Shown here: positions 9,189-52,898 of the stretch, piece by piece
Position numbering within the stretch: the stretch's first letter is position 1
Layout: each line of letters opens with the position of its first letter
UHGV virus genome: UHGV-1377268
Source of the DNA: a virus
DNA length: 60,976 nucleotides
Direction: 5' to 3' (one strand)
The notes under the pieces: model-generated
Told to the model about the DNA's origin: nothing
Seen by the model: only the letters and a program-made list of their open reading frames with translations
The model's database searches: none
Translations under genes and position numbers: made by a program

Positions 9189-11732
9189 TCAAAACGGAAT
9201 ATCATCCTGGTAATAACGTGCATCGTAGTTGATGCACGTTAGACCTACTTGATAGTTATTGTCAGCGCCTGAAGGTTCCATAGTCTGTACCAGCATTGCC
9301 AGCTTGCTACGCTCATCGTCAGTTCTGATGATATAACTTGTCCGGTCCTGTAACCACCCGGTGTAAATCTCTCCCGTGGGCGCTGATTGCAATATAACGG
9401 TAAATTCATCATCACCGGGTGAAACTGGGATGTTTTCAAGCGTGCCTAAACGACCTGTCATCGTGATTGAATATGTATTACCTGTAACAAAATCAACAGG
9501 ATCACTTAACGTCAGTGTTAAACCATCAACATCAACTATCACACCTTCATGTTGTTTCATTCTGGTATTATCAATCATATCCACGCGCATTCCGGGAGTA
9601 GCCTGTAACCCGATACTAAGCGCGGTGCATTCGTGGGTAATACGCTGATAACGTAGTTTATTCATCTCACGATTAGCACGGATTGTAGCCAGATATTTTG
9701 ACTGGCAGGCAACTAAATCTATTTTATTCAGGTTAGTTTCTTCGCCGATCGTAACGTAAAGATATGATTTTTCATCGTGGTCAAAGTATTTAACCTGAAC
9801 ACCCGTGTATTCTTTAGGTGGTGCAAATGCACGGGTACGTTTATCAGTATCGGGCACTTTAAACGCGTGCCCAAATTGCATTGCAGATACTGATTGTGGT
9901 AACTCAGGCCAAAAGTAAAGCACGCTACCCACCTGATATGGGGTTACGTTGACCGTATTACAAATGGTTTGCAACGCTTCTTCATAGGTGGTCCCGTTAT
10001 CATCGAACGTATATCCAACCTGAATAGCACGAGGATCACCAAAATAATCAAGCAGTTGTTGCTGTACTGCATAAAGTGCATCAACATCGATTGTCGATAG
10101 GTCACGACGTCCGAAGTGTGGATCAAGATGCATCGACATAACAACATCCGCAAAATTACTACTTGGACTACCGTTATAAATTCTGGTAGCAAGCATATTT
10201 AATTTTCTTTCTTTTAGTTTTAAAGCTGCTGACGTTGCTTTAGTTACAGAATGAATGGTTGTGACATTACCATAACTGCGAGGTGAAATATCAGTGATAC
10301 CATACATATCGCGCCATTTAACAGTATCGATTGTTGAAATACTTTCATTTAATGTTGTATCTGTGATACGTTGCATCCTGATAAACGCTGCATCTGGATA
10401 AGGATTATCAAATAATAAAGACGCGCCTGTAGCACTTGTCGATCCCTTAACTACAAAGTCGAATGTATATTCAGGATCTGACGGATTATCATAATTAGAT
10501 ACGGTTACACGCAAAGTTACATCAAACGGGGTAATGTAATAGCGACGACGATAAATACCGTTTTGAGCGTAAGCATTCACCAGAATTTTCGGTGAATTAA
10601 TCATTAAGTACGGGCCGACACTATAAGGGCGGGTTGTATCCATACTCGGTTTATAAGTAATTTTAGTACCGCCAGATGAAGCACTTAATGAGTACAGACC
10701 ACCACCAACATCGTAAACAGTCGTATAAGGTGCCTGTCCAGTGGAAGAAAGAAAAGACCAGTTCGAATTTCCAGACACGTCTAGTAATACACCGTCATCA
10801 GATGTTCCAGTAACCTGATATGTACCACTTAAATCATGTAGATAATATAAACCTGTTGGTACACCACCCACTATTTGTTCTTCTAGTGAAATAAAACCTG
10901 ATATTACAAAATCATCACCAATCGCTACACGATCAGACCAGTTAATAGGGTTATCATCATCATTGCTGACGGCATCTATTTGACCAGTAGAATATATTAT
11001 ATAGGTTACATTCCCAGAACTAACATCGGCATAGTTCGGCGGGAATAGTTCAGCGCCATCAACTTCATTCGATTCTTTAGCGATAACCACGGGGAAGGAT
11101 GCGATATCGATAGCACCGTTGATAACCTTTGAAGGTGAACCATAACCGGGTGCAGTTCCCGGTTCATAGATTGAAATTTGAGAACCAGATACGTTAGTAA
11201 TAGGTGTTACACCATCACTGATTTCATCAGTAACGTAAGAACCAGCACCCAGACAAAGAAACTGACATTCAAACTCTGTACCGTCTTTAAAAATATTGTA
11301 GTTCATTAACAGATCCGGGTATGCTCTGACCATACCACGAATATCTGCAATTCGTTCGCCTGGTCGTGAATCATTAGAACGACCTTGTAGTGAGTTATTC
11401 GATGATTTTATTTTACTGTTTATAGTTGCGTTTGAAACGTTCCCTTGCGGTGTGAATATTTTTAAAATAGGGTTAAGGATAGCACCTATCACGCCAGTAA
11501 TAGCGCTTACAATGCCACCGCGTGGAAGTTCGTAAATATGATACGTTGCATCAGGATCGTTTAAAACTAATGGATTGTTCACCCATTCGTGAGTAATGTT
11601 TTCGTCATTTTTAAAAATCAGTAACCCACGCGGACGAACAGACCCAACAGGCCAGCGTTTCAGCAACCATTCACCAAAATCAACATTTTCAGCTTTTTCA
11701 ATCGGCACTGTGTGATAAACAACTTTAGACAT
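9189..11732 (-). CDS. tail tip / central fiber protein (lambda J-like host specificity protein)
   Basis: 847 aa; last gene of the tail operon after the M/L/K-like genes. Confidence 0.5.
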   Translation of the reverse strand: MSKVVYHTVPIEKAENVDFGEWLLKRWPVGSVRPRGLLIFKNDENITHEWVNNPLVLNDPDATYHIYELPRGGIVSAITGVIGAILNPILKIFTPQGNVSNATINSKIKSSNNSLQGRSNDSRPGERIADIRGMVRAYPDLLMNYNIFKDGTEFECQFLCLGAGSYVTDEISDGVTPITNVSGSQISIYEPGTAPGYGSPSKVINGAIDIASFPVVIAKESNEVDGAELFPPNYADVSSGNVTYIIYSTGQIDAVSNDDDNPINWSDRVAIGDDFVISGFISLEEQIVGGVPTGLYYLHDLSGTYQVTGTSDDGVLLDVSGNSNWSFLSSTGQAPYTTVYDVGGGLYSLSASSGGTKITYKPSMDTTRPYSVGPYLMINSPKILVNAYAQNGIYRRRYYITPFDVTLRVTVSNYDNPSDPEYTFDFVVKGSTSATGASLLFDNPYPDAAFIRMQRITDTTLNESISTIDTVKWRDMYGITDISPRSYGNVTTIHSVTKATSAALKLKERKLNMLATRIYNGSPSSNFADVVMSMHLDPHFGRRDLSTIDVDALYAVQQQLLDYFGDPRAIQVGYTFDDNGTTYEEALQTICNTVNVTPYQVGSVLYFWPELPQSVSAMQFGHAFKVPDTDKRTRAFAPPKEYTGVQVKYFDHDEKSYLYVTIGEETNLNKIDLVACQSKYLATIRANREMNKLRYQRITHECTALSIGLQATPGMRVDMIDNTRMKQHEGVIVDVDGLTLTLSDPVDFVTGNTYSITMTGRLGTLENIPVSPGDDEFTVILQSAPTGEIYTGWLQDRTSYIIRTDDERSKLAMLVQTMEPSGADNNYQVGLTCINYDARYYQDDIPF

Positions 11733-20387: not shown

Positions 20388-20475
20388 TGGCGGATAGTAC
20401 AGGATTCGAACCTGTGAACCGTTTCCGGTTTATCGGTTAGCAACCGACCGCTTTCGGCCTCTCAGCCAACTATCC
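20388..20475 (-). tRNA. tRNA-Ser (anticodon GCU), type II with long variable arm, CCA encoded
   Basis: GGATAGT/ACTATCC acceptor stem, anticodon loop UUGCUAA, T-arm ACAGG-TTCGAAT-CCTGT, 3' GCCA. Confidence 0.8.
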
Positions 20476-24632: not shown

Positions 24633-24676
24633 TTAAAATAATTCTTGACGGATTGCAGACAGGAAGGTATAGTTAT
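24633..24676 (+). promoter_or_regulatory. sigma70 promoter, family copy
   Basis: -35 TTGACG 24645-50, 17-bp spacer, -10 TATAGT 24668-73. Confidence 0.6.
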
Positions 24677-25291: not shown

Positions 25292-25531
25292 ATGTGTGAA
25301 CTTACATCAGTTTTTGAAGTTCGATCCGGTATGGATGGTGCACCAGGCCGTGGGGAACGTGAAGGCGGCATGTATAGCAGTTTTGAACTGGCTAAAGAAC
25401 ATGCTGAAAAAGTCATTGAACGTATTAATCAGTTCGACGATGTTTTGTGGAAATCAAATGATCGGGCTGAAGGTGAATATTACTGGGTGGAGATCAACGA
25501 ATACGATGTTATCTACCCGGGGCAGGAGTAA
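25292..25531 (+). CDS. hypothetical protein
   Basis: 79 aa acidic ORF with an AGGAG RBS. Confidence 0.4.
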   Translation: MCELTSVFEVRSGMDGAPGRGEREGGMYSSFELAKEHAEKVIERINQFDDVLWKSNDRAEGEYYWVEINEYDVIYPGQE

Positions 25532-25536
25532 TACCT

Positions 25537-25710
25537 ATGACCGATATCGAAAAACGAATTAAAGAACTGCGCAGGCGTCAGGTTTGCATTCGTGAGAGTA
25601 TCGAAATACTCAGAAAACAATGGCGCGACGATCAGGAAGAACTGGCAAAATTAGCACCGCAGGCCATTCGTTCTGGTATTAGTGTTAATCTTGAAATGTC
25701 AGAACCATGA
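25537..25710 (+). CDS. hypothetical small coiled-coil protein
   Basis: 57 aa with a GGAG RBS. Confidence 0.3.
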   Translation: MTDIEKRIKELRRRQVCIRESIEILRKQWRDDQEELAKLAPQAIRSGISVNLEMSEP

Positions 25711-25721
25711 GGTAAACGCTG

Positions 25722-25988
25722 ATGAAACGTTGTGACGTATGTAACGGCTATCAGGGTGAACCAACACCTGTGAAAGTCGGTGATAAAGTTGATTTTGTGA
25801 TCGAGAAACGAACAGGTAATAGTATTCGAATGACCGCCAGAACCGGAAAACTTATGCTGATTAAAGAGAATGGTTTCAGCGTGATTTACCGCGGGACTGT
25901 TTACCACGCTGATTCTGTTTCAAGCCCTGCTGATCCGTCTCCGATTAGTCTGGCTATGTTCGGGCGCTGTACCTGTTCAACCCAGTGA
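25722..25988 (+). CDS. hypothetical protein (CxxC N-terminus)
   Basis: 88 aa ORF beginning MKRCDVCNG. Confidence 0.35.
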   Translation: MKRCDVCNGYQGEPTPVKVGDKVDFVIEKRTGNSIRMTARTGKLMLIKENGFSVIYRGTVYHADSVSSPADPSPISLAMFGRCTCSTQ

Positions 25989-26001
25989 ACCGATATCTTG
26001 C

Positions 26002-26059
26002 TTGACTGCTTAACCTCCTGTTAGTAGTATTACGTTAAACAACAGGAGGTTTTTATTTT
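26002..26059 (+). promoter_or_regulatory. terminator hairpin sequestering the RBS of the downstream HEG, with an internal sigma70-like promoter
   Basis: Stem aacctcctgtt (26012-22) / aacaggaggtt (26041-51) with an 18-nt loop and a T-run; AGGAGG SD at 26045-50 lies inside the 3' arm; TTGACT 26002-07, 17-bp spacer, TAGTAT 26025-30 would start transcription inside the loop. Confidence 0.5.
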
Positions 26060-26981
26060 GACCAGAAGAAAGACAGAACAAGAAAGAACTTCTGAAATTT
26101 TAGAAGTTTGTAAAAATACAAACTATCGTTTTATTAAATTTGTAAATGGGTACAAAAATGCTTCCAGCAGAATAGTCATGTATTGTGAAAAACATGGTGA
26201 ATGGGAAACATCATGCGACCTAGTCATAAACGGTAAAAATTTCTGCAGGAAATGTCGCAATGAAAAATTAAATTCAATTAATAGTATTAACCAAAAAGAA
26301 TATGAAAAAAGAATTGCTGATGTTTGTAATTCACGAGGTTATACGTTTATAAAATGGATTGAAACTTACCATGGGGTTCGTACAAAAGCATTGATACAAT
26401 GCGCTAAACATGGACAATGGGTTTCTTCTGGTAACAACATCACAATAAATAAAAGTTTTTGTAAAAAGTGTTATTTTGACAGCAAAAAGACCCCGTTAAA
26501 TTTAAGAGAAAAAGAAATAAATGAAAAATGTCATTCGTTAGGTTATGACTTTTTAGGGTGGGTAGACAAATATACTAACCAATACAGTAAGATTAAAGTA
26601 AAATGTCAAAAACATGGTGAATTTGTAACAACACCTACATTGTTATTACATGCTGGTAGGCGTTGTGCAGGTTGTGCAGCAACAGGTTTCAAGATTAAAA
26701 ATAAAGCTAGTTTATATATTTTGAGATCTGTTAGTGGTGAATATTTGAAGATAGGTATCAGTAATCATGTCGAAAAACGAATAAAAATATTAAGAAAAAG
26801 AACTCCATTTGAATTCAATGTTATTGAAATATATCACTCTGATGGTGCAACCATTCGTTCGCTTGAAAAAGACTTTCATTCTCATTTTGAATCTGCCGGG
26901 TTGACAGGGTTTGATGGTTGTACAGAGTGGTTAAAATGGAATCCGAATATAACCACTCTGATACGTATGATTACGGGATAA
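26058..26981 (+). CDS. homing endonuclease-like protein, T5orf172 (GIY-YIG-like) domain with three N-terminal Zn-finger-like modules (HEG1); TTG start
   Basis: Three tandem Y.F..W...Y.......C.KHGEW........C..C modules, then GFKIKNKASLYILRS..YLKIGIS..VEKRIKILR.. T5orf172 signature. Confidence 0.6.
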   Translation: MTRRKTEQERTSEILEVCKNTNYRFIKFVNGYKNASSRIVMYCEKHGEWETSCDLVINGKNFCRKCRNEKLNSINSINQKEYEKRIADVCNSRGYTFIKWIETYHGVRTKALIQCAKHGQWVSSGNNITINKSFCKKCYFDSKKTPLNLREKEINEKCHSLGYDFLGWVDKYTNQYSKIKVKCQKHGEFVTTPTLLLHAGRRCAGCAATGFKIKNKASLYILRSVSGEYLKIGISNHVEKRIKILRKRTPFEFNVIEIYHSDGATIRSLEKDFHSHFESAGLTGFDGCTEWLKWNPNITTLIRMITG

Positions 26982-27924
26982 CGTTTATATCTTCTGGAAG
27001 AGAATAGGCGACCCGACACCTGCAGTTAATCGTATTCGATGCGCTTCCGTTAGGGTCACGAGGGAACATAAGCGGCCCTAACGGTGTTGAAAACGGTCTG
27101 TTCATTGGGATCCACCCGTTAGTTTCCCCGGCGCTAATATGTGCATCACGAGTGCGTGTATCATGACGATATAACCAGCGCTTTAACAGTTCGTTGCTGA
27201 TAGCCCCGGTGATCTGCCCTTCACGAATTGCCAGATCCTGACCAACAGATGTTGCACGTAATGACTCAGTACGTGCAATTGTCTCTGTGCGCTGTTTTAC
27301 ATAGCGTAGGCGGGTTTGTTCAACAATCTTATCGATCTGGCTTTCAGACAGTTTCCCGGCGCTTACAGCGTTTTTTGCGCTATCAGTCACGGTGGTTAAG
27401 CTGTTCACATAACCTGCTTCACCTTTTTCAAGCGCAGCACGCAACCGCTGAACGGTTTGTTCCTGACGACTGGTTAACCCGATACTGGAACGAAAATCAC
27501 GGGCAATCTGGCGCGGGTTGCGCCCGGTAATAACACCCTGGTTCACGGCAATCTGAACAGCCTTCACCGTTTCATCGCTTACTTCGCGGATCATCTGCCC
27601 AACATAGTTATTGATATACGCACCGACCCGTGGGTTAACAAGGCTGAAAACCACGGGGGCAGTAACAGCTGCTTTCGGCAGAATCTGAACGACCACGCGA
27701 CCTGATTCAGCTATCGCGTTTTCAATAACAGGTCGTAACTGTGCGCTTAACTCATCCGGGAGAGTGTCAAGAATGGGAAGTAACCCGCTAATACCCTGAG
27801 TTTCAATAATGTACTCAAGGTTCGCTAATGATTCGCTACGGCGCACGTTTTCCCACACGATGTTCAGTGCTTCACGGATCCGCAGGTCATATTTATCAGC
27901 AATGTCCGGGTATGGGTCTTTCAT
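26971..27924 (-). CDS. head morphogenesis protein (Mu F / SPP1 gp7-like)
   Basis: 317 aa; C-terminal ..TINCRCRVAYSLPED motif typical of Phage_Mu_F-like proteins. Confidence 0.6.
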   Translation of the reverse strand: MKDPYPDIADKYDLRIREALNIVWENVRRSESLANLEYIIETQGISGLLPILDTLPDELSAQLRPVIENAIAESGRVVVQILPKAAVTAPVVFSLVNPRVGAYINNYVGQMIREVSDETVKAVQIAVNQGVITGRNPRQIARDFRSSIGLTSRQEQTVQRLRAALEKGEAGYVNSLTTVTDSAKNAVSAGKLSESQIDKIVEQTRLRYVKQRTETIARTESLRATSVGQDLAIREGQITGAISNELLKRWLYRHDTRTRDAHISAGETNGWIPMNRPFSTPLGPLMFPRDPNGSASNTINCRCRVAYSLPEDINVIP

Positions 27925-28212: not shown

Positions 28213-28261
28213 TTTCGGATGATCTGCAGGATATAGCGGTTATCCTGCAGAACGTTCTAAA

Positions 28262-31269: not shown

Positions 31270-31605
31270 ATGTTCGTAATACTGTGGATCCTGTTTAGCG
31301 CTCTGGTTGGTGCCTTCGCCAAACGTACCGGGCGTAACCCCGGAACCTGGTTCTTCATTGCGGTTTTAACCAGTCCCGGCATCGGTGCAATACTGTTGTT
31401 GATCGGCTGGTTACTGAATGGTTCAGTGAAAAAAGAAGTTGTGAGCAATCACAAAATGTTCGGCAGTTATGAAGCGGCTTATAATTACGTGACCGATAAT
31501 TACAACGTCGATATGTATTATCGGTCACAGGTTGCTTCTGAAATTTATCGACTGGCCCGCAACACGGACGATTGCGATCAAATCGTTGCAAATTATGTGG
31601 GGTAA
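31270..31605 (+). CDS. membrane protein (two TMDs)
   Basis: 111 aa with a TAAGGAGG RBS and N-terminal hydrophobic helices. Confidence 0.45.
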   Translation: MFVILWILFSALVGAFAKRTGRNPGTWFFIAVLTSPGIGAILLLIGWLLNGSVKKEVVSNHKMFGSYEAAYNYVTDNYNVDMYYRSQVASEIYRLARNTDDCDQIVANYVG

Positions 31606-31677: not shown

Positions 31678-31703
31678 GGGGTCTGTTATAGACCCCTTTT
31701 TTT
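31678..31703 (+). terminator. rho-independent terminator upstream of HEG2
   Basis: ggggtct-gttat-agacccc followed by T7. Confidence 0.6.
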
Positions 31704-31716
31704 AACGGATATAACG

Positions 31717-32550
31717 ATGAAAAAATCCATTATTGAGATAAATAATAGTTTACCTAACAAAAATATAAAATGTATTGGGTATTTATCATCGAACGAAAAG
31801 GCGTTGTTTATATGTGAAAAAGGGCATGTTTGGTTTAGTAAGTTTTCTAATGTGAAATTTTTAAAACGAGGTTGTCCGCATTGTTCTAAACGTGCAAAAT
31901 TGAACATTGAAACAATAAATAACCTCCTCCGCATGAGAGGTATAGAATGTATAAAATATGGTGGTAGCTCTTTGAAAATTAGCACTTTTAAATGCGTTTG
32001 TAATAACGAATGGAAAACTAATTTAAATTCAGTGAAAGATAGAATGACTGGTTGTCCTCGGTGTTCAGGTAAAGAAGTATTAACTATTGAAAAACTAAAC
32101 GATGAAATAAAACATAAGGGTATAGAATGTATAGAATTTAACAGAGGGGTGAAACAAAAGTCAAAATTTAAGTGTCAACATGGGCATACTTGGGAATCTT
32201 CATCTGATAACGTTAAAAATAATAACACGGGGTGTCCTGTTTGCGCTAAAACAGGTTATGACATTAATAAAAAAGGAACGTTATATTGCTTGGTTAGTCA
32301 AAACAAGAAGTATATAAAAATAGGTATAAGTAATAATCATAGAAAGCGAATTAAAATATTAAGAAACGCAACACCTTTTACGTTTGATGTATTAAGGTTG
32401 TTTTCATCTGATGGTTTAACCATAAGAAATTTAGAAAAGGAATTTCATAAAATCTTAAAATCTGCAAACTTAAAAGGTTTTGATGGTGCAACTGAATGGT
32501 TTGAAAACGAAATAAAAATACAAACTGTATTTAAAATGTTAGGGGTCTAA
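31717..32550 (+). CDS. homing endonuclease-like protein, T5orf172 domain with three Zn-finger-like modules (HEG2)
   Basis: Three C..H.W....C..C modules, then GTLYCLVSQNKKYIKIGISNNHRKRIKILR..; paralog of HEG1 and HEG3. Confidence 0.6.
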   Translation: MKKSIIEINNSLPNKNIKCIGYLSSNEKALFICEKGHVWFSKFSNVKFLKRGCPHCSKRAKLNIETINNLLRMRGIECIKYGGSSLKISTFKCVCNNEWKTNLNSVKDRMTGCPRCSGKEVLTIEKLNDEIKHKGIECIEFNRGVKQKSKFKCQHGHTWESSSDNVKNNNTGCPVCAKTGYDINKKGTLYCLVSQNKKYIKIGISNNHRKRIKILRNATPFTFDVLRLFSSDGLTIRNLEKEFHKILKSANLKGFDGATEWFENEIKIQTVFKMLGV

Positions 32551-32570
32551 TGAAAGACCCCTTTTTTTAT
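32541..32570 (+). terminator. rho-independent terminator downstream of HEG2 (same stem as the upstream one)
   Basis: aggggtct-aatgaa-agacccct followed by T7; the stop codon lies inside the stem. Confidence 0.65.
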
Positions 32571-34884: not shown

Positions 34885-35183
34885 CTTACGAACAGTACAA
34901 ACAACTTCTGACTGTCCAGGGTATGACGTGTATGGCTCGTTACATGGGTACAGGTGTTGAAACTGGTTGTTCGATGTTCAATACTGATAATGGTTTGAAA
35001 ATTGATATCAGTATTGAAGATAACCGTATCCTCGCACGGGGATACGTAACTGTTCGTGGTTTAATGGATCCAGTTTCAACTGGTCAGTTTAGTCAACCTT
35101 GGGCTAATAATGCTTTCAAAGTACAATGCGATCGTTTAGTTCGTTTAAAACAAATTATTGGTGATCATTTAATTGATAGGTGA
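34881..35183 (+). CDS. hypothetical protein
   Basis: 100 aa ORF with an ATGA overlap. Confidence 0.4.
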   Translation: MTYEQYKQLLTVQGMTCMARYMGTGVETGCSMFNTDNGLKIDISIEDNRILARGYVTVRGLMDPVSTGQFSQPWANNAFKVQCDRLVRLKQIIGDHLIDR

Positions 35184-35425: not shown

Positions 35426-35758
35426 ATGAACCATGTAAACGCTATTCGCTGCAACGATGAATATCAGTGCTCGCATTGCGGTAAATCGTGGGATATCCAC
35501 GAGGAAGCGCCGGACTGTAAAATGACGGAAATTGATTTACCAGAATTTAAAACGGTTGATTATTTCGGGTTAAATTTAATAATTCCATCATCTATTAAAT
35601 TTATCGGAACTAATGCCAGTGGTGAAGTTTACGGGTATTCCCACGAACCTGAAAGATATGATGAATTTTGGGATACTTACCGTTGCCCAAGCGTAATACC
35701 ACTGGCAACCGTCAACCTTCATGGTCTTGACTGGCGGGAGACGTTACGCAAATGCTGA
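35426..35758 (+). CDS. hypothetical protein (CxxC motifs)
   Basis: 110 aa ORF with a GAGGA RBS. Confidence 0.4.
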   Translation: MNHVNAIRCNDEYQCSHCGKSWDIHEEAPDCKMTEIDLPEFKTVDYFGLNLIIPSSIKFIGTNASGEVYGYSHEPERYDEFWDTYRCPSVIPLATVNLHGLDWRETLRKC

Positions 35759-41518: not shown

Positions 41519-41593
41519 CCAGATTGGTTTACTTTTCAGATAGTCAACCAAAACGATTGACTATCTGAATCACAACTTTAAACAGGAATAATT

Positions 41594-49201: not shown

Positions 49202-49247
49202 GCTGATTATGGTGGAGGGTTTGCAATGTGTCAAGAATTATTTTGAA
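49202..49247 (-). promoter_or_regulatory. sigma70 promoter, family copy (minus strand)
   Basis: Minus strand aaaataattcTTGACAcattgcaaaccctccacCATAAT; -35 at 49229-34, -10 at 49206-11. Confidence 0.55.
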
Positions 49248-51700: not shown

Positions 51701-51924
51701 AATTTAACCTCGTGGTGATTGCAAAAGTCCTGAACTAATGGGCATTCGCGCGGATGTTCAATACCCTTTATAACCTGACAACCAGAATCCGTAAGCAGAT
51801 TACACGCCGGGCAATAACGGTTAGGTTCGACTAACCATAACCCCTGACAACGCCCACCGCTAAAACGGTGTGGAAAGTCATAAGCGCTACAACGGCATGT
51901 ATATTGTTTACGGCGACGTTTCAT
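51697..51924 (-). CDS. Cys-rich small protein
   Basis: 75 aa with multiple CxxC motifs; ATG lies at about the predicted TSS of the upstream promoter copy. Confidence 0.4.
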   Translation of the reverse strand: MKRRRKQYTCRCSAYDFPHRFSGGRCQGLWLVEPNRYCPACNLLTDSGCQVIKGIEHPRECPLVQDFCNHHEVKL

Positions 51925-52867
51925 GATTCAAGTTTAAACCTATGTTGTGCAATCCGTCAAGAATTATTTTAATGTAATCTAAAATTTCTGGTGAGTAGTG
52001 AAACCATTCTGTTGCACCATCAAAACCTGTTAAACCAGCGTTTAAGTGTTTGAATTTCTTATGAATATTTTGCTCTAAATCATAAGACTGCTGACCAGTA
52101 CCCACATTGATTTGAAAAATTTTATGTAGCTTGAAAGGCGTGTTGCGTTTAAGCTGTTGTATTCTTCGGTGAGTGTTATTTGTAACGCCTATTTTAATCA
52201 ATTGAGGATGGTTTTTATCATCTGCTACGATGTATACGAAACCTGGCAAAGAACGATCCAAACCAGCAACAGCGCATGATGAACATCCATAACCGTTCAA
52301 ATGTCCATTTGGTCTTTGCCAAAACTCACCGTGTTCAGGGCAGATAATGCAAACCTTCTTATGTGCATTCGTATAAATAACTTTATGATAATCATACTTA
52401 CAACCATGTACTAATACTGCATTTTTAACAAATTGTTCTTTATCACCAGATTGTGCAATTGATATACGCTGTTTTTTACATTCCGGGCATCCATGACCAT
52501 TGAAATGATGATGTGGTTTTTGTTTAAAAAAACCATGTTTTGTGCATTTTATATCGACGGGAACTGTAGCGCCGTTGTAAACAACAAAGGAATAATCATA
52601 CTTAGACCCGTGTACAGCATAAGACCTTTTTATAAAATCTGAAATTGTAAACTTACCTTTTTCAGAAATGATGATTTTACCACATTCCGGACAACCCCTT
52701 TTATTGTACAAATGGTTATTGGGAGTTTGCCAAAAATCACCATGTATAGGACACGTTATACAAACTTTTGTATTTGTGTTTACATAAACGACAGAATCAT
52801 AACTATATTTTCCGTCATGTATAGTTAATGCTCGTTTTACAAATTGGTCAGTTGTTAATCTACACAT
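51908..52867 (-). CDS. homing endonuclease-like protein, T5orf172 domain with three Zn-finger-like modules (HEG3)
   Basis: Three Y.Y..V.Y......C..HG.F........GC.EC modules, then GFVYIVADDKNHPQLIKIGVTNNTHRRIQQLKR..; AAGGAA RBS. Confidence 0.6.
   Translation of the reverse strand: MCRLTTDQFVKRALTIHDGKYSYDSVVYVNTNTKVCITCPIHGDFWQTPNNHLYNKRGCPECGKIIISEKGKFTISDFIKRSYAVHGSKYDYSFVVYNGATVPVDIKCTKHGFFKQKPHHHFNGHGCPECKKQRISIAQSGDKEQFVKNAVLVHGCKYDYHKVIYTNAHKKVCIICPEHGEFWQRPNGHLNGYGCSSCAVAGLDRSLPGFVYIVADDKNHPQLIKIGVTNNTHRRIQQLKRNTPFKLHKIFQINVGTGQQSYDLEQNIHKKFKHLNAGLTGFDGATEWFHYSPEILDYIKIILDGLHNIGLNLNHETSP
51925..51975 (-). promoter_or_regulatory. sigma70 promoter, family copy (minus strand), embedded in the HEG3 3' coding region
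   Basis: Minus strand aaaataattcTTGACGgattgcacaac..; -35 at 51955-60; the sequence encodes KIILDGLHN of HEG3. Confidence 0.5.
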
Positions 52868-52898
52868 TTCGTTCCTTATCACTTCCTTGTGAGTTAAA

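Follow-up and report, generated by a model that had tools for sequence, protein, structure and literature searches.

A mobile homing endonuclease cassette of a Klebsiella siphophage with a conserved hairpin predicted to hide the ribosome-binding site around a putative internal promoter

How is a selfish endonuclease gene expressed when it resides directly downstream of an operon that is not its own? This question is raised by HEG1, a homing endonuclease gene (HEG) at positions 26058 to 26981 of the virus genome UHGV-1377268, whose entire 60,976 nucleotides (nt) constitute the window analysed here and which upon sequence comparison is a Klebsiella siphophage with approximately 96% identity to phages KP13-27 and Carvaje. 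Regulation of homing endonucleases has reportedly been studied almost only in T-even phages. Endonucleases of the T5orf172/CapR type, represented by HEG1, are abundant in many other phages including therapeutic Klebsiella, Escherichia coli and Salmonella phages, and we know of no regulatory information described for them. The original prediction, made from the nucleotide sequence, proposed that translation of HEG1 is gated by a terminator hairpin that hides the ribosome-binding site (RBS), with a promoter firing inside the hairpin. The reading that we favour on balance is a double lock on incoming transcription, borne by a mobile cassette, in combination with an internal sigma70-type promoter that would make the only translatable mRNA.

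Inspection of positions 25500-27300 recovered every sequence feature previously listed for the HEG1 leader, including the Shine-Dalgarno (SD) sequence:

26002..26007, plus strand, putative -35 hexamer TTGACT, 2 nt inside the left border of the cassette; TTGAC is invariant in three lineages
26012..26022, plus strand, 5' hairpin arm (anti-SD) AACCTCCTGTT, within the promoter spacer; 11/11 positions invariant in three lineages
26025..26030, plus strand, putative -10 hexamer TAGTAT, within the loop; TAATAT in the other two lineages
26036..26039, plus strand, predicted transcription start in the loop, 6-9 nt past the -10 hexamer, as deduced from the sequence
26041..26051, plus strand, 3' hairpin arm AACAGGAGGTT, which holds the SD AGGAGG at 26044-26049
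26050..26059, plus strand, T-run TTTTTATTTT, a possible terminator U-tract that doubles as SD-to-start spacer
26058..26981, plus strand, HEG1 coding sequence, 307 amino acids, TTG start, three CapR zinc modules and a nuclease-type domain

The two hexamers are separated by a spacer of 17 bp, and the stem is a perfect 11 bp around an 18-nt loop (26023-26040). Perfect inverted repeats with arms of 11 bp or more and a loop no longer than 25 nt number eight in the window, compared to 0.37 expected in Markov-shuffled sequence, and the HEG1 hairpin is hence not a chance feature. Its arm sequence is confined to this one locus within the window, and the locus does not match any Rfam family. That hairpin, promoter-like match and start codon merely coincide is extremely improbable; promoter-like matches are common, but a repeat this rare, and an arrangement kept as a whole across lineages diverged to a synonymous divergence (dS) of about 1, speak against coincidence.

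The gene product matches the Pfam families CapR in three stretches (E = 2e-22), MUG113 (5e-10) and T5orf172 (4.7e-5), whereby the MUG113/T5orf172 nuclease-type domain covers residues about 219-297, and the residues invariant among aligned homologues are three zinc-cysteine sets and a GIY-YIG-like core. These matches identify HEG1 as a homing endonuclease gene of the free-standing kind, whose product combines three CapR zinc modules with a T5orf172/GIY-YIG-type domain. Relatives were recovered by tblastn in 691 phage records, often annotated as endonuclease and often located beside structural genes. The TTG start had been claimed to be required since the first zinc module would begin ahead of the first ATG, and this claim is upheld: an ATG appears in frame only at codon 41 (26178), which falls within the first zinc module, two residues ahead of the first zinc cysteine, an in-frame TAG at 26025-27 closes the frame upstream and leaves TTG 26058 as the sole usable start before this ATG, and six homologues align from residue 1 of the TTG-started protein. 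Because the frame is closed, the ATG comes too late and homologues align from the first residue, we consider TTG 26058 to be the real start. Comparison of the window with the endonuclease gene of E. coli phage PDP46 (ratio of non-synonymous to synonymous divergence, dN/dS, 0.115; dS 0.98) indicates that the protein is under purifying selection, with synonymous sites near saturation.

What, then, does the hairpin do to the ribosome-binding site? Folding with RNAfold gives the hairpin an energy of -15.2 kcal/mol directly 5' of the U-tract UUUUUAUUUU. For incoming transcripts of 131 to 221 nt, the minimum-energy fold includes the hairpin, the unpaired probability of each SD base is at most 0.001 and the predicted cost of opening the SD amounts to 10.2-11.1 kcal/mol (window) or 16.1 kcal/mol (PDP46). 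A transcript directed by TTGACT, the 17-bp spacer and TAGTAT would begin near 26037, 4 nt ahead of the 3' arm, and thus would not contain the anti-SD arm; for transcripts starting at 26036-26039 the opening cost is 2.2 kcal/mol, an in silico difference between long and short leaders of 8-14 kcal/mol. The folding check that had been suggested for this locus therefore agrees with expectation, with the SD inside a stable stem, closed in long transcripts and open in the short leader. A ribosome that terminates on the preceding gene at 25986-88, 23 nt ahead of the 5' arm, should leave the stem unmelted.

As an intrinsic terminator the element is less typical, as only five of the 11 stem pairs are GC and the loop comprises 18 nt, which departs from the short loop and GC-rich stem of this class. 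When all hairpins followed by a T-run were ranked on both strands with a d'Aubenton-Carafa-type score, whose formula is uncalibrated for modern energy parameters, the HEG1 hairpin was the fifth-best terminator-like element in 61 kb and, with a score of -2.3, ahead of background, while the four canonical terminators of the phage score 28-54. The proposed intrinsic terminator consequently stands with respect to the stable stem followed by a U-run, but not with respect to its loop, which is too long, and its rank far below the four canonical elements. We regard the hairpin as a plausible terminator, probably a partial one, with the long loop as its weak point. A terminator on the minus strand was rejected as a candidate, as no T-run follows the hairpin on that strand.

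The comparison of related genomes demonstrates where the leader comes from. The features concerned are:

26000..26993, plus strand, mobile HEG1 cassette, a net insertion of 994 bp between ATATCTT repeats
25722..25988, plus strand, last gene of the upstream operon, 88 amino acids, stop codon 23 nt ahead of the 5' arm
26971..27924, minus strand, head morphogenesis gene of the Phage_Mu_F family, the gene targeted by the HEG

The cassette is bounded by the 7-bp direct repeat ATATCTT, to the left at 25993-25999 and to the right at 26987-26993. The exact junction cannot be placed within this repeat; in the span listed above, the right copy is counted as part of the cassette. The GC content is approximately 30% inside and approximately 45% in the flanks. 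At the same site, the window and KP13-27 carry the cassette, while Carvaje, VLCpiS10a and phi_KPN_H2 are empty with flanks of 95-100% identity; in these three phages the 88-amino-acid gene and the Mu-F gene overlap convergently by 12 nt, with neither intergenic region nor hairpin. The whole cassette is equally absent from phage Sasha, the flanking genes of HEG-less phages overlapping convergently or having a different spacer. As HEG-less relatives do not possess any such element there, the hairpin arrived with the HEG cassette and, being located wholly inside the insertion, it is not the terminator of the upstream small-gene operon as originally assigned. Promoter, hairpin, SD and open reading frame travel as one cassette, of which the first 58 nt are the control element. 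A cassette at the same site and with the same borders occurs in KP13-27, PDP46, an IMG/VR contig, a metagenome contig and Logan contigs. The gene upstream of it in PDP46 and in L024 is unrelated to that of the window and the cassette border is identical, which argues that the leader is functional, or at any rate retained, in more than one context.

Among GenBank phages, IMG/VR, JGI metagenomes, Logan and a collection of 5.8 billion proteins, three independent leader versions were found:

window-type leader: the window, KP13-27 and seven metagenome contigs
PDP46-type leader: E. coli phage PDP46, L009, L016 and L025
L024-type leader: L024, a Logan assembly

Although the coding regions of the three lineages share only 81-83% DNA identity and have diverged to dS of about 1, TTGAC, the 17-bp spacing, TAnTAT, all 11 positions of the 5' arm and the TTG start are invariant, and the 3' arm is invariant at 10 of 11 nt. 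Changes are found at seven of the 18 loop positions and right after the -35 hexamer. Within the 17-nt promoter spacer, five of the six sites outside the arm vary compared to none of the 11 arm sites (Fisher p = 0.001). A promoter spacer is normally without sequence constraint, and we know of no reason for it to be conserved like the arm, whereas an anti-SD arm has one; this constraint points to a role of the arm as SD partner. One additional inner G-C pair is present in PDP46 and L024. Pattern scans of IMG/VR with one arm left free retrieved one already known contig; all other matches were due to chance, most of them an SD plus ATG on the opposite strand.

From anatomy, borders, conservation and the predicted folding difference we infer promoter activity, start point, termination efficiency and translational repression, which together would operate as follows. 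Homing would have brought HEG1, within its cassette of 994 bp, into the final five codons of the Mu-F head gene. Polymerase arriving from the strong upstream operon would copy both hairpin arms; part of these incoming transcripts would probably stop at the U-run, that is at the start codon, and in those that read through the 11-bp stem would bury AGGAGG such that ribosomes would be unable to load. Polymerase from the cassette's own promoter would start in the loop near 26037 and produce an RNA with the 3' arm only, the free SD of which would permit use of the weak TTG start, with the TTG further damping translation. Endonuclease output is accordingly predicted to be low and to be governed by the cassette, whatever the transcriptional context at the landing site.

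A number of observations weigh against this double lock with its internal promoter. The promoter match is 9/12, and seven such sites in a 4.5-kb scan compare with 12.2 in shuffled sequence; the pattern TTGAC-N18-TAnnAT has two matches compared to 0.78 expected, so that the match alone is at chance level. The site does not carry the GGATTGCA extension common to the phage's own promoters. In a crude genome-wide calculation of RBS opening energy, HEG1 with 14.4 kcal/mol ranks sixth among 92 genes, about 2 standard deviations over the mean, and this energy by itself fails to single it out as a unique outlier. A standard terminator scan, which considers loops of 3-8 nt only, leaves out the hairpin, its 18-nt loop being atypical. 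The SD-hiding hairpin with embedded promoter does not occur in homologues of 30-46% identity (L006, L007, L010-13, L017, L020), nor is a leader of this type present at the two paralogues within the window, and a literature search found no transcriptome data for this phage group. Independent lineages for leader comparison number only three; across these, covariation analysis gave no compensatory change, with 10 of 12 pairs never varying, and the sole arm change, AGGAGG to AGGAGA in L024, breaks one pair. RNA-level and DNA-level selection are inseparable in the absence of compensatory changes. The paralogues are:

31717-32550, plus strand, HEG2
about 51908-52870 (or to 52933), minus strand, HEG3

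With respect to the promoter, the comparison with the resident promoters of the phage is informative. They form a phage-wide family of about 11 copies with TTGACGGATTGCA, a 17-bp spacer and TAnnnT:

16829, 24645, 29433, 31211, 34004, 38485, 40335, 43123 and 58318, plus strand, and 49222-49234 and 51948-51960, minus strand, motif matches of the phage promoter family
24645..24673, plus strand, likely promoter of the upstream small-gene operon (TTGACGGATTGCA...TATAGT), a member of the family

The HEG1 hexamers have the same core (TTGAC, 17 bp, TAnnnT) as these promoters, whose own -10 hexamers do not surpass TAGTAT. As a side observation, the 8-nt extension past the -35 hexamer in the family might be the site for a phage factor. 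The HEG1 site is a credible host-type (sigma70-like) promoter by its hexamers and spacing, outside the phage's own promoter family. Its support comes from conservation, since the hexamer match by itself is within chance; of the suggestion that a promoter fires inside the hairpin, the placement in the loop and the core kept in three lineages are retained, while the hexamer match alone is not distinctive.

These findings bear directly on an alternative, in which hairpin and U-run are a cassette-borne terminator or insulator only, the hexamers are no working promoter and the endonuclease derives from rare read-through as the hairpin breathes; the SD would be in the 3' arm as this is both silencing and space-saving. 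Besides the chance-level match outside the phage's promoter family, this alternative is in line with the seven free-standing HEGs of T4 that are promoter-less cassettes (PMC2988022), and with paralogue HEG2, which is located directly behind a canonical terminator with no visible promoter. HEG2 is flanked by two copies of one terminator stem (GGGGTC...GACCCC then T7; 31678-31703 and 32541-32569), which are two of the four canonical terminators in the window, while KP13-27 is without HEG2 and has a single terminator at that site. By this comparison HEG2 is inserted in a terminator T-tract and carries a replacement terminator that overlaps its own stop codon, and two paralogous endonuclease genes, HEG1 and HEG2, hence are both positioned directly behind a terminator-type structure. 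A terminator without promoter, however, gives no account of why TTGAC, the exact 17-bp spacing and TAnTAT are kept in three lineages while neighbouring positions change; moreover, an SD buried by 10-16 kcal/mol together with a possible terminator would leave almost no route of expression, yet selection on the protein is strongly purifying (dN/dS 0.115). We judge this alternative unlikely.

A second alternative takes up the arms conserved without covariation, as these are equally fitting for a protein-binding site: the inverted repeat would act on DNA as an operator flanking the -10 hexamer, bound by a repressor and possibly by the endonuclease itself. There are precedents for its components, as CapR, a relative of the DNA-binding modules of HEG1, binds a promoter -35 region (PMC8096241) and I-TevI represses its own late promoter (PMC2988022). 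But an autorepressor operator of the I-TevI type was rejected for HEG1, as the leader is without similarity to the homing site (local alignment score with the 80-bp homing target 12, shuffle mean 12.8, p = 0.79). The 3' arm being a consensus SD 8 nt from the start and the 5' arm its exact complement is most simply an RNA-level design, and the HEG1 protein with three tandem modules has no obvious dimer symmetry. Action of the repeat on DNA is thus very unlikely.

Would the switch also be a clock? If gating were truly temporal as in T4, the internal promoter would be active only at a late stage, for instance upon shut-off of the strong upstream promoters or once a phage factor is present, and the endonuclease would be made only late in infection. 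The architecture is identical to that of I-TevI, and the internal promoter, by its difference from the phage's promoter family, could belong to another temporal class. On the other side, the hexamers are of ordinary sigma70 type, a late-promoter motif is neither known nor detectable for the phage group and a literature search provided no timing data for it. A motif of the T4-late TATAAATA type is not present in the HEG1 leader, and the upstream and the internal promoter are both sigma70-like in their core. As the internal promoter is of the same core type as that of the upstream operon, an early-off/late-on logic as in T4 does not follow, and temporal gating is quite unlikely. Insulation is better supported than timing by the arrangement of the leader: expression of HEG1 would be set by the cassette and not by the neighbourhood.

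The proposed double lock with its putative internal promoter resides at one end of the cassette; the other end forms part of the head morphogenesis gene on the opposite strand, where the following features were distinguished:

25977..25999, minus strand, relic of the original 3' end of the head gene (..DIGSLG and stop), left of the cassette and including the left ATATCTT
26971..26993, minus strand, replacement 3' end of the head gene (..EDINVIP and stop), supplied by the cassette, overlapping the HEG1 stop and including the right ATATCTT
26994..27016, minus strand, recoded stretch of the head gene, in which VAYSLPE replaces VQYSLPE amid numerous synonymous changes, of PDP46 type and not of Carvaje type
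homing target in the HEG-less Carvaje: GGTACAGTACAGTTTGCCGGAAGATATCGGTTCACTGGGTTGA

In HEG-less phages (Carvaje, Sasha) the head protein ends with ...VQYSLPEDIGSLG, while in HEG-carrying genomes (window, PDP46, L024) it ends with ...VAYS(L/M)P(E/Q)DINVIP; HEG-carrying genomes keep the orphaned codons for DIGSLG and stop left of the cassette (25977-99 in the window). As read from these alleles, HEG1 sits five codons before the head-gene stop, and the cassette gives a new tail (NVIP and stop) on the opposite strand. Sasha and Carvaje have nearly the same target sequence at the Mu-F 3' end, although their genes are only approximately 80% identical overall. The recoded 22-nt tract, present in all HEG-carrying alleles, is 56% identical to Carvaje and 76% to PDP46, with 96-100% identity to Carvaje farther on, and may be read as a co-conversion footprint of homing or as an immunised target half-site. 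In several metagenomic and IMG/VR contigs the endonuclease gene is deleted except for its last approximately 80-90 nt; L014 and L015 (about 1500-1590), L021, L022 and L023 retain only this remnant and the NVIP tail. By their structure, such remnants are the decay phase of the homing cycle.

Considering both ends jointly, the HEG1 cassette might be a fully portable, self-contained module that is adapted at both ends, and we put this forward tentatively, with some doubt about the combination as a whole. A sigma70 promoter nested in the anti-SD/terminator hairpin would shut the gene twice over to any transcription from outside, leave expression to the cassette's own weak promoter alone and thus let the cassette behave alike behind unrelated genes in Klebsiella and E. 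coli phages, and a 3' patch on the opposite strand would rebuild the last codons and the stop of an essential head gene. In this latter respect the cassette resembles prophages that carry a replacement tRNA 3' end. If true, it would represent a convergent, non-T4 way for a homing endonuclease to live in a coding region without intron or intein.

Other observations concern the 3' end of HEG1 and the rest of the window. One further repeat is located within the endonuclease gene:

26923..26960, no strand assigned, another perfect inverted repeat of 11 bp around a 16-nt loop, in the 3'-terminal part of HEG1

It is part of a block of approximately 140 nt (about 26840-26975) that is near-identical in DNA to L010 and L017, paralogues at another site which are otherwise 45% identical to HEG1; the shared block indicates gene conversion between endonuclease genes, and the repeat is retained in the deleted HEG1 remnants. 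Six more perfect inverted repeats of 11-13 bp are found at 9214-9241, 28223-28251, 31489-31528, 34977-35018, 35571-35603 and 41535-41569. The last 50 nt of HEG3 contain a perfect copy of the phage promoter motif (51931-51960, minus strand), and its predicted start coincides with or directly neighbours the ATG (51924) of the following gene; HEG3 may thus harbour an embedded promoter near its 3' terminus, perhaps one that gives a leaderless mRNA. The single tRNA of the window is a tRNA-Ser (GCU) at 20388-20475 on the minus strand, on which ARAGORN and Rfam agree.

The most useful new facts are that the control region lies in the mobile cassette, that the 3' end of the head gene is rewritten and that the leader is conserved in three lineages. 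The annotation is corrected at three points: the start codon (TTG), the real limits of the cassette and the chimeric 3' end of the head gene. If the double lock and internal promoter are confirmed, HEG1 would be a convergent case in which RBS hiding and a start inside the hairpin constitute a general solution for selfish nucleases, and a control element can belong to the mobile cassette itself. The 58-nt leader could also serve as a compact insulated promoter-RBS part for synthetic biology.

An RBS-hiding hairpin with an internal promoter is already known from phage T4. An RBS-sequestering hairpin in combination with an internal promoter is described for the endonuclease genes I-TevI, I-TevII, I-TevIII and segB of T4 and mobE of phage Aeh1, and equally for T4 genes e, soc and 49 (PMC2988022). 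The postulated likeness of HEG1 to I-TevI and segA-type genes holds for the architecture of I-TevI, but segA is not among the documented cases (PMC2988022). HEG1 shares with the T4 type that the gene under the proposed control encodes a homing endonuclease, that a consensus SD located about 8 nt from the start codon is predicted to be sequestered by a stable stem when transcription comes from upstream, and that a putative promoter in or next to the structure would provide a shorter RNA unable to form the stem. Unlike the T4 type, the promoter is sigma70-like and not a T4 late or middle promoter, such that temporal gating is not implied, and the hairpin is followed by a U-run that may also terminate transcription. 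The gene belongs to the T5orf172/CapR family in a siphophage and not to the GIY-YIG/HNH seg, mob and Tev families of T-even phages. As the sequences are unrelated, the resemblance is convergent. The autorepression of I-TevI (PMC2988022) also has in common with HEG1 a sequence element that overlaps the endonuclease gene's own promoter; in the I-TevI operator, 15 of 20 nt are common with its own homing site.

A second relevant system are the promoter-early stem-loop (PeSL) cassettes of the T4-like phages RB49 and phi1, in which a sigma70 promoter and a stem-loop terminator isolate small mobile genes (PMC2839356, PMC4122927). PeSL cassettes and HEG1 share an intergenic composite in which a sigma70-like promoter is joined to a stem-loop; the latter terminates or attenuates, or in HEG1 may do so, the transcription that arrives from outside, and it may sit between the -35 and -10 hexamers or overlap the -10. 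In both, the element moves with a small mobile gene and isolates it transcriptionally. The PeSL descriptions consulted place the stem-loop in or beside the promoter and do not report SD sequestration, whereas the 3' arm of HEG1, downstream of the predicted start, is the SD itself; they also describe GGGG/CCCC-rich repeated recombination motifs, whereas the HEG1 leader is single-copy and moved by homing. A PeSL-type composite motif repeated around many small genes was not encountered in the window, and the repeated promoter motif of this phage differs.

The family itself, T5orf172 homing endonucleases with CapR/DUF723 zinc modules, is found in phage ICP1 and many other phages, as outlined in two reports (Netter et al., 2021, PMC8096241; Barth et al., 2023, PMC10448857). 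HEG1 resembles its members in the repeated CapR modules with a C-terminal T5orf172 domain, the position beside or within essential structural genes, the presence of several paralogues per genome and the mosaic recombination between paralogues. In the searched text of the two reports, neither 'promoter' nor 'terminator' occurs with regard to T5orf172/CapR genes; the HEG1 leader would add a regulatory layer to the family. Cumulatively, the HEG1 leader unites features of the T4 type and of the PeSL type within another family of endonucleases and another kind of phage, and we class it as a convergent case.

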